DNA of 28,612 nt. It comes from an uncultured Thermococci archaeon (GTDB taxonomy: Archaea > Methanobacteriota_B > Thermococci > Thermococcales > Thermococcaceae). The DNA is taken from NCBI GenBank assembly GCA_964615185.1, contig CAZTOS010000025.1:1-28612 (forward strand). Direction: 5' to 3'. Below, piece after piece: positions 1-28,612 of the stretch (position 1 is the stretch's first letter; the number at the start of each line of letters is the position of its first letter). The notes under the pieces were generated by a model. That model searched no databases. It had not been told where the DNA came from and saw only the letters and a program-made list of their open reading frames with translations. The position numbers and the translations under genes are program-made.

Positions 1-55
1 GCCTACCCGCTATGAAATTAACACACTACACGCTCTTAACGGGTAGGCAGAACGG
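1..55. repeat. Left terminal copy of a hairpin-containing repeat (inverted copy at 28560-28612)
   Basis: Positions 3-55 are the exact reverse complement of 28560-28612. Internal IR GCCTACCCG (1-9) / CGGGTAGGC (40-48) around a 30-nt spacer. Abuts the middle of cbiM. Confidence 0.95.
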
Positions 56-577
56 ATACTCGGTGCTTTCTTGGGATATACAGTTTATACCAAGCTAAAG
101 AGCATAAATGAAATTGTAGCAATTGGAATAACATCATGGCTCTCAGTGTTTCTGGCATCAGTTCTGGCAGCAATCGAAATTGGAATAAGCAAAAGCTTAC
201 CCTTTGGAAAGGTTTTAACGCTCATGGCAGGCTACCATGCAATAATTGGAATAGGTGAAGCCATATTGACCATAATAATCGTCCAGGCAGTTAGAGCTAA
301 GCTCCCTGAGATAGGGGGGTGTTCCTGTATGAAAACAATAGTCAAGGGATTAATTATCATTATCATCTTGCTTGCAATAGCTTTACCATTTGCCTCAAAT
401 AACCCCGACGGATTGGAAGCAACTATGGAAAAAGTTGGACTCGAAGAACAGACAGTTTATGAAGCACCATTCGATTATGGAGAAACATGGGGACAAAGTA
501 TAGCTATGGGGCTGATTGGGATAATTTTAGTCTTCGGAGTAAGCTATGGGCTTGCTAAATTGATAAAGGGGGCTTAA
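56..577 (+). CDS. cbiM: 5'-truncated Co/Ni ECF substrate-binding component CbiM, read in frame into a PDGLE domain
   Basis: Open frame from ATA at 56 (ILGAFLGYTVY...) with CbiM C-terminal motif MAGYHAIIGIGEAILT. N-terminus is missing at the terminal repeat. Followed by cbiQ and cbiO. Confidence 0.85.
   Translation: MLGAFLGYTVYTKLKSINEIVAIGITSWLSVFLASVLAAIEIGISKSLPFGKVLTLMAGYHAIIGIGEAILTIIIVQAVRAKLPEIGGCSCMKTIVKGLIIIIILLAIALPFASNNPDGLEATMEKVGLEEQTVYEAPFDYGETWGQSIAMGLIGIILVFGVSYGLAKLIKGA
329..577 (+). CDS. PDGLE-domain (NikN-like) small membrane component, probably a separate gene in origin
   Basis: MKTIVKG...ASNNPDGLE motif and two hydrophobic segments. ATG at 329 sits in an ATGA overlap context. 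Confidence 0.7.
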   Translation: MKTIVKGLIIIIILLAIALPFASNNPDGLEATMEKVGLEEQTVYEAPFDYGETWGQSIAMGLIGIILVFGVSYGLAKLIKGA

Positions 578-17843: not shown

Positions 17844-18293
17844 ATGAACGAGTTAACTGAAGAAGAAAAAGAATTTATAGAACGTGTAAAACCCATGCTC
17901 AAAAAGTTTTTAGAGTTATGTGAGAAAGAAGGAATCGAGCCAGGAGCAGGTTCCTATATTCTGTCTGAAAAAGGCAATATATATCATGGAGTTCCTTTTA
18001 AGGCAGCAAGATCTATTCATGGTGAAGAGAACGCAATAGGAACAATGGTGACAGAAGAAGGCATAAATTCAAAATTCAAAATAATTTTAATTATTGGTGG
18101 ACCTGAAGAAATAATTCTCCCTTGTGGGATATGCAGAGAAGCCATTAGTCGCTATGGTACTGAAGATGTCACAATTTTATGTGCTGACCTATCTCTATCA
18201 AAAATAAAGAGCTGGGAAGTTTATCCAAGTGGTCTTTATGACGCAATCTTTATAAATATGGAGTACAATAAACCGATTTACTTTTTCTCTTGA
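17844..18293 (+). CDS. Cytidine-deaminase-like protein with chimeric GH1-derived C-terminus
   Basis: HGEENAI (HxE) and PCGICRE Zn motifs. Residues WEVYPSGLYDAIFINMEYNKPIY near the C-terminus are identical to the GH1 at 22154-23674. Confidence 0.8.
   Translation: MNELTEEEKEFIERVKPMLKKFLELCEKEGIEPGAGSYILSEKGNIYHGVPFKAARSIHGEENAIGTMVTEEGINSKFKIILIIGGPEEIILPCGICREAISRYGTEDVTILCADLSLSKIKSWEVYPSGLYDAIFINMEYNKPIYFFS
18211..18281 (+). repeat. 71-bp direct repeat, copy 1 (GH1 gene segment)
   Basis: 66/71 identical to 23304-23374. All 5 differences are synonymous third positions. Confidence 0.95.
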
Positions 18294-22153: not shown

Positions 22154-23674
22154 ATGCTCCCAGAAAGTTTTTTATGGGGAGTCTCTCAATGTGGATTCCA
22201 ATTTGAAATGGGGGACGAATTAAGGAAGAACATTGATACACGGACTGACTGGTGGCACTGGGTCAGAGACCCTTGGAATATCAAAAATAAAATTGTAAGC
22301 GGAGATTTACCAGAGAACGGAATAAACAACTACGAGCTGTATGAAAAAGATCATGAAATAGCCAAGGGTTTAGGATTAAATGCCTATCGTTTGGGGATTG
22401 AATGGAGTAGGATCTTTCCATGCCCAACTACTCACATTCAGGTAGACTACTCTAAAGACGGATATGGTCTGATAAAGGAGGTTAAGGTAACCAAGGATAC
22501 AATAGACGCCTTAGATGAGATTGCAAACCATAAAGAGGTGGAATATTACCGCAAAGTTATTCTAAGCCTAAGGGAAAAGGGATTCAAGGTTATACTGAAT
22601 TTGCACCACTTCACGAATCCAATTTGGATACATGACCCAATAACGGTTAGAGAAAGCGGCTTAAAGAAGGGACCAATGGGATGGGCAAGTGAAAGCACGA
22701 TTATTGAGTTCGTAAAGTTTGCAGCATATATAGCCCATAAATTCGGCGATCTTGTTGATATGTGGAGCACATTTAACGAACCAATGATAGTTGTTGATCG
22801 CGGTTATTTAGCCCACAACTCGGGCTTTCCACCGGGGATATTTAACCCAGAGCTTGCCAAAAAAGTCGCGACCAATCTAATTGTGGCTCATTCAAGAGCT
22901 TATGACGTCATTAAAAAATTCGACAAAGTTAAAGCATATAAAGACTCAAAAGAAAGTGCTTCTGTTGGCATAATAAACAACATAATACCATTTTATCCAC
23001 GCAATCCTAACGACTCAAAAGACGTGAAAGCTACCGAGAGGTACGATGCATTTTACAACAGGATGTTTTTAGAGGCTATCAACAATGGAAAACTGGACAC
23101 CCAAATGGATGGTGAAAGCTACGTTGAAGTCAAGCACTTAAAGAAGAACGACTGGCTGGGCGTGAACTACTACACAAGGGATCTTGTAAAGTATAAAGAG
23201 CCAAAAGAGGACTCTCCAGTAATCTTCGAGAAAGTTGAGGGGTATGGACGCCTTTCAAAACCAAACTCCATTTCAAAGGATGGGCTCCCAACGAGCGACT
23301 TTGGCTGGGAAGTTTATCCAAGTGGCCTTTATGATGCCATCTTTATAAATATGGAGTACAACAAACCAATTTACATAACCGAAAATGGAATTGCAGATGC
23401 AAAAGATATCCTGAGACCATACTACATTGTTTCCCACATAGCAGAAGTTGAGAGAGCAATTGAAAATGGTGCAAAAGTTTATGGATATCTGCACTGGGCA
23501 CTGATGGACAACTATGAATGGGCAAGCGGCTTTAGAATGCGCTTTGGGCTCTATGAAGTAGATTTGAAGACTAAGGAGAGGAGACCCAGAAGGAAAAGCG
23601 TGCAGGTTTTCAAAGAAATAACCCAAAACAATGGTGTTACTGAAAAACTTAGGAAAGAGTTTTTGGAGAATTGA
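22154..23674 (+). CDS. GH1 beta-glycosidase, Pyrococcus beta-mannosidase (BmnA)-like
   Basis: FLWGVSQCGFQFEMG, TFNEP acid/base, YITENG nucleophile, WALMDNYEW. Closely follows the recalled P. furiosus beta-mannosidase. Confidence 0.92.
   Translation: MLPESFLWGVSQCGFQFEMGDELRKNIDTRTDWWHWVRDPWNIKNKIVSGDLPENGINNYELYEKDHEIAKGLGLNAYRLGIEWSRIFPCPTTHIQVDYSKDGYGLIKEVKVTKDTIDALDEIANHKEVEYYRKVILSLREKGFKVILNLHHFTNPIWIHDPITVRESGLKKGPMGWASESTIIEFVKFAAYIAHKFGDLVDMWSTFNEPMIVVDRGYLAHNSGFPPGIFNPELAKKVATNLIVAHSRAYDVIKKFDKVKAYKDSKESASVGIINNIIPFYPRNPNDSKDVKATERYDAFYNRMFLEAINNGKLDTQMDGESYVEVKHLKKNDWLGVNYYTRDLVKYKEPKEDSPVIFEKVEGYGRLSKPNSISKDGLPTSDFGWEVYPSGLYDAIFINMEYNKPIYITENGIADAKDILRPYYIVSHIAEVERAIENGAKVYGYLHWALMDNYEWASGFRMRFGLYEVDLKTKERRPRRKSVQVFKEITQNNGVTEKLRKEFLEN
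23304..23374 (+). repeat. 71-bp direct repeat, copy 2 (inside GH1)
   Basis: 66/71 identical to 18211-18281. Confidence 0.95.
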
Positions 23675-28218: not shown

Positions 28219-28559
28219 TCACCCTTGATACAGATGACACGCCACATAGTGTCCAGGGCTAACTTCCTTTAATTCTGGTTCAATCTTACTGCAAATCTCT
28301 GTTGAATATGGACACCTGGTATGAAACTTGCATCCACTTGGTGGATTTAATGGACTGGGAATATCCAGACTTTTGAGCTTCAATGGCTTCCTTTTTCTTG
28401 AGAGTTCTGGATCTGCCACAGGAACCGAGGATATTAGAGCCTTGGTATATGGATGCAATGGATTCTGAATAACTTCCTCAGCAGCAGCTACTTCTGCGAT
28501 TTTTCCGAGGTACATAACGGCTATTGAACCCCCTCCTTTCGCTGAAAAATACCGAGCTG
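28219..28559 (-). CDS. 3' part of an Opp/Dpp-family ABC ATPase (OppF/DppF-like), 5'-truncated
   Basis: AARYF...[32 protein letters not shown]...C...VACH. Cut by the terminal repeat just after the expected HDL switch motif. Confidence 0.9.
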
Positions 28560-28612
28560 CCGTTCTGCCTACCCGTTAAGAGCGTGTAGTGTGTTAATTT
28601 CATAGCGGGTAG
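28560..28612. repeat. Right terminal copy of the hairpin-containing repeat
   Basis: Exact reverse complement of positions 3-55. Confidence 0.95.

Follow-up and report, generated by a model that had tools for sequence, protein, structure and literature searches.

IS607-family right ends at both termini of a Thermococcaceae contig, flanked by host sequences whose likeness is most likely coincidental

We propose that the DNA analysed here, the whole of contig C25 of a 138-contig genome from an uncultured member of the Thermococcaceae (28,612 nt; hereafter the window), carries at each side the right end (RE) of an insertion sequence of the IS607 family, that the two copies lie in two host genes and were cut to their last 55 nt where a k=55 assembly broke inside them, and that the likeness of the host sequences behind them, including a shared CTCGGT, is coincidental. 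We consider this reading very probable. The contig would then be a 28.5-kb stretch of Thermococcaceae chromosome between two IS607-family copies in opposite orientation, with their right ends pointing inward. The features on which the argument turns are as follows.

1..55, forward strand: RE remnant, the last 55 nt of an element assigned to the IS607 family, 96% identical to the RE of the complete element in relative G033
56..70, forward strand: left flank, the 15 nt of host DNA that adjoin the RE, cbiM codons I-L-G-A-F (Pfam CbiM alignment)
56..577, forward strand: 3′ part of the interrupted cbiM-PDGLE gene (PF01891 residues 2-85, PF13190 residues 93-132)
28219..28559, reverse strand: C-terminal remnant of an oligopeptide/dipeptide ABC ATPase gene (PF08352, oligo_HPY), interrupted on its 5′ side by the second copy
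28560..28612, reverse strand: RE in the opposite orientation, 53 nt of the element, the same sequence as 1..55

Contig ends and the interrupted genes

The same sequence stands at both ends of the window, positions 1-55 being the reverse complement of 28560-28612 (53 nt), and in the assembly this 55-mer is found solely at three of the 276 contig ends, both of those of C25 and one of C46. Exact end-to-end overlaps between contigs are 55 nt long in 42 of 48 cases and the shortest contig measures 1,536 nt; the assembly is of the de Bruijn type with k=55 and breaks at repeats. What looks like a 55-nt repeat is the first 55-mer of a dispersed repeat, i.e., the assembler cut the RE to the length of one k-mer. 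Only 53 nt instead of 55 are seen at the right ends of C25 and C46 because, with k=55, the next two flank bases (CA) are common to both, and the repeat finder extended the arms of the repeat to 67 nt at 93% identity because the flanks match. In a separate metagenome contig that has the identical cbiM junction, the sequence continues 67 nt deeper into the element. At least four other families of shared contig-end sequences occur in the assembly (group A with 5 ends, B with 6, C with 5, and D with 3-4), presumably representing other insertion sequences or repeats, and the window also holds a 71-nt direct repeat of 93% identity (18211-18281 and 23304-23374, 5.1 kb apart, inside ORFs) that probably marks paralogous genes.

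The left flank (window 56-70) reads ATACTCGGTGCTTTC and the right flank (the reverse complement of 28545-28559) reads CAGCTCGGTATTTTT, as given in the earlier note. Directly behind the RE, 9 of the 15 positions are identical in the two flanks, the longest run being six, the likeness stops after 15 nt, and the three positions closest to the element differ (ATA and CAG, respectively). The genes are indeed unrelated and the codon phases indeed differ: one flank belongs to a CbiM protein with a PDGLE domain, in which CTC-GGT forms whole codons, and the other to an oligo_HPY-type ABC ATPase, in which it straddles codons.

The missing halves of both junctions are found on other contigs. The match to the Pfam CbiM model is split between two contigs, its positions 113-204 starting at window 56 and its positions 1-113 being found at the C42 end, where 50 nt of the element's left end come after the N-terminal half of the gene. 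At the start of contig C62 stand the ~35 nt of the ABC gene that adjoin the junction, together with a second left-end variant and the first 27 codons of tnpA. Both ends of the window are the same element end from separate copies, with the partner junctions on C42 and C62, and on these grounds we rejected both a hairpin telomere and a single window-long element with a terminal inverted repeat. The two sites are separated by ~24 kb on one strand in relatives G003 and G007, where synteny is kept, and this synteny together with the partner junctions therefore makes the window a collinear piece of chromosome with two independent insertions whose right ends face inward. The ABC ATPase gene is already a remnant in G007, its frame opening at the LSGGQ region immediately downstream of the preceding gene, and in the present genome just the ~35 nt of it lie upstream of the insertion, with AT-rich sequence before that.

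The element and the RNA predicted at its right end

Matches to the RE that cover query positions 1-55 and stop at the same boundary are present in 8 of the 60 genomes of relatives searched, mostly in finished chromosomes. In G033 the RE is the 3′ end of tnpB in a complete element of 1,852 nt, in which a gene of 202 codons is followed by a tnpB of 393 codons that stops 9 nt before the element boundary. Window positions 1-46 correspondingly comprise the last 15 codons of tnpB and its stop (44-46). The 202-residue protein of G033 combines an HTH_17 domain (PF12728, residues 3-52) with a Resolvase domain (PF00239, residues 57-189) and scores 238.9 bits against NF033518, "IS607 family transposase" (cut-off 110), while the 393-residue protein scores 171.7 bits against NF040570, "RNA-guided endonuclease TnpB" (cut-off 100), and also matches PF07282. 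The earlier note had suggested looking for a linked recombinase, and what was found is an IS607-type serine TnpA together with the RNA-guided nuclease TnpB. The 27 tnpA codons assembled in the present genome (C62) are 96% identical to the G033 copy. No terminal inverted repeats were detected, the best pairing of the first 40 nt of the left end with the reverse complement of the RE over 20 offsets being 18 of 40.

Complete copies in public contigs fall into three sizes, ~260, 1,414-1,440, and 1,821-1,852 nt, of which the intermediate ones are too short for tnpA and the largest contain both tnpA and tnpB. The body of the element is absent from the present genome bin, and the full copies used for the family assignment come from relatives and metagenome contigs. 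For the copies in the window, the IS607 assignment draws on the 55-nt RE, a left end of 50-160 nt, the 27 tnpA codons, and these complete copies elsewhere, and the element is an ordinary, previously uncharacterised member of that family.

More distant versions of the RE are also scattered in this genome. Six diverged copies, all of other hairpin sub-families, lie inside its contigs:

C46:12589-12673
C13:3163-3231
C8:9865-9933
C37:133-204
C4:27307-27378
C113:2406-2608

A related RE of another hairpin sub-family occurs on C59 near the left end of that contig, and on C113 a left-end-like match lies ~100-200 nt from the RE match, which suggests that this copy is a short non-autonomous element. The same RE as in the window is found in MAG records labelled Candidatus Alkanophaga, Thermoproteota, and Desulfurococcaceae (L050, L051, L055), which points either to exchange across archaeal phyla or to errors in binning these contigs.

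Conservation of the last ~115 nt of the element extends to copies that lack tnpB as well as to those that have it. In an alignment of 52 diverse copies (A2), in which columns 1-15 and the final 8 were dictated by the search pattern and are uninformative, a three-stem structure with 23 pairs in 3 helices has 95.5% of cells paired compared with 82.3% after shuffling, and its covariation score is 0.370 compared with 0.141 in shuffles (0 of 500 reach 0.370) and 0.03-0.08 when the partners are slid. Changes on both sides are seen in 11 of the 23 pairs, and the terminal hairpin is fully swapped between sub-families, different sequences adopting the same shape and all ending in CAGAACGG. In the window this hairpin is a 9-bp stem-loop in which positions 1-9 pair with 40-48, presumably within the omega-RNA scaffold, and the RE ends in the same invariant CAGAACGG. 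Since the G-U-compatible changes fall on the sense strand of tnpB, the structure is compatible with an omega-RNA scaffold whose guide would be the flank from window 56 on. A junction-linked non-coding RNA, as had been suggested earlier, is represented by a predicted structured RNA at the RE with covariation. The last ~115 nt are most likely the omega-RNA scaffold of TnpB, to judge from their sequence, and by analogy with the TnpB literature window 56-70 is the presumed start of its guide. A search of Rfam with the full copy and both window ends returned no omega-RNA or intron family, the sole match being HgcC at chance level (E 0.15). In a bacterial IS607-family system the omega-RNA scaffold ends in ...UCGG, according to the available text of its description (bioRxiv 10.1101/2023.11.20.567912).

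Insertion target and the resemblance of the flanks

The base composition of the target became apparent when filled and empty sites were compared at four sites, the empty ones being taken from relatives of which the closest are 90-93% identical. For cbiM, all six relatives are uninterrupted, with GGGG in four and GGGA in two, and uninterrupted orthologues read ...ATGGGG/ATACTCGG... (the slash marks the insertion point). For the ABC remnant, all three relatives have GGGG, in the context ...TTTTGGGG/CAGCTCG.... The site on C46 has GGGG in five of eight empty counterparts and a complete filled counterpart in metagenome locus L100; as far as the BLAST search of the present genome reached, the host sequence upstream of this insertion had no match there. 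The insertion in G033 was compared with a near-identical empty site in G030 that reads GGAGG. A G run thus surrounds the insertion point in all four cases (GGGG for the three sites in this genome, GGAGG for G030), and at none of them were host bases found duplicated. The left flanks of 10 of the 11 true left-end junctions listed end in GGG with T or A before it. Hence the selected target is a G run of the (T/A)GGGG type at the crossover. This is the known (G)GG/TGGG preference of IS607 TnpA, which according to the available text of PMC6188088 inserts at GG within a (G)GG run in targets that are otherwise unrelated, and which in a clostridial family member has TGGG as the TnpA target, TGGG as the TnpB TAM, and TCGG at the end of the RE (bioRxiv 10.1101/2023.11.20.567912, as far as its available text goes).

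The earlier proposal of an oriented, sequence-directed insertion stands in part: the element is oriented, has no terminal inverted repeats, and chooses its site by sequence, but the signal is the G run at the crossover. Comparison with empty sites, also suggested earlier, revealed no target-site duplication and placed the G run at the crossover at all four sites. The lengths of the filled sites add a further detail, as all four have one G fewer than an exchange with GG at both ends predicts, and a simple 2-bp GG-GG conservative exchange does not fit, being off by one G at each of the four. The junctions read GG-GC on the left and C-GG on the right (window 53-58 and 28555-28560, the end of C42, the start of C62, L018, and L100). 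We infer from these sequences that the left junction keeps the GC of the element and the right junction the GG of the target, which fits the lengths. An artificial donor with a GC core likewise kept GC at its left junction and GG at its right in the experiments described in the available text of bioRxiv 10.1101/2023.11.20.567912.

The central claim of the earlier note was integration at a fixed distance from NNN-CTCGGT-RY-TTT, and this does not hold across the family. Right-end junctions were collected from this genome, from relatives (10 junctions), and from a scan of 185,579 species genomes (12 more distinct ones), giving 25 distinct junctions, and a metagenome scan added at least 120 stretches for a total of at least 150 junctions with at least 113 distinct flanks, flanks being merged if they differed at no more than 3 of their first 20 nt. 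CTCGGT at +4 to +9 occurs at 2 of the 25 distinct junctions, both of them the window's own, and at 2 of the 113 distinct junctions among the matches listed, both being the window's sites in other assemblies. None of the other 111 listed has it, and it was the absence of CTCGGT enrichment at other junctions that had been named beforehand as the result that would refute the motif; 106 of the 111 match at most 3 of the 6 CTCGGT positions. The identities to CTCGGT among the 113 listed flanks are distributed as follows.

0 identities: 14 flanks
1 identity: 41 flanks
2 identities: 43 flanks
3 identities: 8 flanks
4 identities: 4 flanks
5 identities: 1 flank
6 identities: 2 flanks

Among the 113 listed flanks T stands at position +1 in 69, a clear bias of 0.41 bit, a weak bias is seen at +2, and columns +3 to +20 hold no information. 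CTCGGT is also missing from the third junction with an identical RE (contig C46), and from the six diverged RE copies inside other contigs of this genome and the one near the C59 end. Uninterrupted orthologues that are free of the element carry exact CTCGGT in three of six cases for cbiM and in two of three for the ABC remnant, where these letters belong to ordinary coding sequence and vary at synonymous sites. CTCGGT-RY-TTT is therefore pre-existing host coding sequence at both sites, most likely with no role in targeting and a coincidental likeness.

The chance of such a coincidence was estimated against two backgrounds. Among random 15-mer pairs from this genome, agreement at 9 or more of 15 positions has a probability of 0.0060 and a run of 6 or more of 0.0028, and among random pairs of the 3,598 T+GGGG-following sites in this genome the values are 0.0075 and 0.0031, with 0.0012 for the two criteria combined. 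The probability that any of the three pairs among the genome's three identical-RE junctions satisfies both is 0.0034. The figure of below 1% estimated by hand in the earlier note is fair for a single pair (0.0012-0.0075), and the match, of about 0.1-0.3% per pair, was noticed post hoc, is unreplicated at other junctions, and is most likely due to chance. Across the family there is a mild excess of look-alike flanks. Among the matches listed (113 flanks, 6,328 pairs), 72 pairs agree at 9 or more of 15 positions compared with 48.8 under a column-shuffle null, 28 pairs of the same listed flanks share a run of 6 or more compared with 16.3, and 15 satisfy both criteria compared with 6.5 +/- 2.4 after shuffling and ~7.8 from the genome-based rate. 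This excess weighs against our reading; it could stem from heterogeneity of base composition, insertions into other repeats, or diverged orthologous sites that were not merged, and some weak sequence preference, or unmerged related sites, may lie behind it.

A true preference of this sub-lineage for right flanks resembling CTCGGT-RY-TTT, caused by an extended TnpA preference or by a parent TnpB/omega-RNA that cuts or binds guide-like sites and so favours integration there, strikes us as improbable. Two of the three identical-RE junctions in the genome do carry the motif, a coincidence of low probability for any of the three pairs as given above, CTCGGT at +4 to +9 is absent from all 3,598 other sites behind T+GGGG in the genome, and the excess of similar flank pairs points the same way. 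The third such junction lacks it, however, as do 111 of the 113 distinct junctions listed, in which nothing beyond +1/+2 is informative, and the motif was defined post hoc from two cases. In the guides of TnpB and Cas12 the seed positions nearest the element are expected to matter most, and it is these three positions (ATA vs CAG) that differ between the flanks. Published IS607 insertion maps, in the text available, show no relation among targets beyond (G)GG/TGGG. A more specific version, in which new copies favour G-run sites whose right flank resembles that of the parent, i.e., the omega-RNA guide, is by our estimate slightly more doubtful still. If it were true, TnpB/omega-RNA or an extended TnpA contact would bias integration as well as homing, the two CTCGGT sites of the window would be a parent-daughter pair, and the excess of look-alikes (15 pairs vs ~6.5-8 expected among the listed flanks) would be its trace.

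Artefact and common descent fare far worse. The 55-nt ends could be taken for a laboratory adapter or an assembly chimera, with the flanks as fragment ends, in that the sequence stands exactly at both contig ends, inverted and with a hairpin; yet 55 nt is the general overlap length of the assembly, the sequence is present at three contig ends alone, the partner half of each interrupted gene runs into the other end of the element, and relatives carry the same sequence within finished chromosomes, where it forms the 3′ end of tnpB, so that this explanation, already refuted by the overlaps and the tnpB ends, is scarcely credible. The earlier argument against adapters was sound, as these are true junctions of a mobile element. 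Hardly any probability attaches either to paralogous flanks, or to flanks copied along with the element by transduction of flanking DNA or recombination between copies: the shared run does directly adjoin the element, but the genes come from different families, the likeness ends after 15 nt, 24-28 kb of synteny between the sites is kept, and both flanks are collinear with uninterrupted orthologues that have the same letters and no element, which already refutes it.

Comparison with known systems and what the element means

The candidates put forward earlier, IS110/IS1111, IS200/IS605 (Y1), and casposons, do not fit, and the family is IS607. IS110/IS1111 elements have a DEDD transposase and a bridge RNA complementary to the target, and they were set aside on the basis of the full 1,852-nt copy, which contains a serine tnpA and tnpB alone with no match to a DEDD-transposase family; among the 113 listed junctions no conserved target beyond the G run was found. 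IS200/IS605 elements, with a Y1 HUH TnpA and TnpB, resemble the present one in an omega-RNA (here predicted) over the 3′ end of tnpB, asymmetric ends, lack of target-site duplication, and a short motif, but their target is a motif of four or five nucleotides lying 5′ to a hairpin end in single-stranded DNA, that of the present element a G run at a double-strand crossover, and they were excluded on the ground that the sole transposase gene in the full copies encodes a serine recombinase, not a Y1 HUH enzyme. Casposons have a Cas1 integrase, terminal inverted repeats, and target-site duplications, and none of the three was found here.

Within the IS607 family, as described in the available text of PMC6188088 (IS607 of Helicobacter pylori, IS1535, and the archaeal ISC1926), the likeness extends to a serine TnpA whose HTH is N-terminal and whose catalytic domain is C-terminal, a downstream tnpB, the absence of terminal inverted repeats and target-site duplications, and insertion at GG in (G)GG. 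What differs from that text is the Thermococcaceae host, the (T/A)GGGG target, the three sizes, and the junction dinucleotides, which on the reading that fits the lengths are GC on the left and GG on the right, in contrast to the GG at both ends of the model given there. A further comparison is with CboIStron and the TnpA(S)-TnpB-omega-RNA systems, in the available text of bioRxiv 10.1101/2023.11.20.567912. Both have a G-rich target and TAM by the left end (TGGG there, (T/A)GGG(G) here, where its role as TAM is presumed), and in both the RE/scaffold ends in NCGG, namely UCGG there and ACGG here, which differs from the TAM at -3. The guide there derives from the DNA behind the RE, as is presumed here, and the pattern of the GC-core donor junctions (left GC, right GG) is that read for the natural copies in the present family. 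Unlike in CboIStron, no group I intron was detected in the present element (the full copy has no match in Rfam), and its host and sequence are different.

Taken as an IS607-family pair, the two insertions may be pictured as follows. The copy in cbiM has a left end of the kind seen in the ~1.44-kb elements that contain tnpB only, and the copy in the ABC remnant a left end that runs into tnpA, as in the ~1.85-kb autonomous form. The serine-recombinase TnpA would insert a circular copy at GG inside a (T/A)GGGG run with no target-site duplication, and the RE overlapping the 3′ end of tnpB would encode the three-stem omega-RNA scaffold ending in CAGAACGG. Transcription would run on into the flank, so that window 56-70 would supply the guide, and with that guide TnpB may cut the vacated site (a G-rich TAM plus the flank) after excision.

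The main value of the analysis is one of correction, in that an IS607 element together with a k=55 break explains an inverted repeat with look-alike flanks, and the motif proposed as a target is no feature of the element. Its by-products are a Thermococcales IS607/TnpB family with at least 113 distinct junctions and three size classes, a predicted omega-RNA scaffold supported by covariation, and a (T/A)GGGG target and presumed TAM. In addition, the left and right junction dinucleotides of the natural copies, as read here, differ from each other, mirroring an unexplained experimental result for a bacterial IS607 TnpA.
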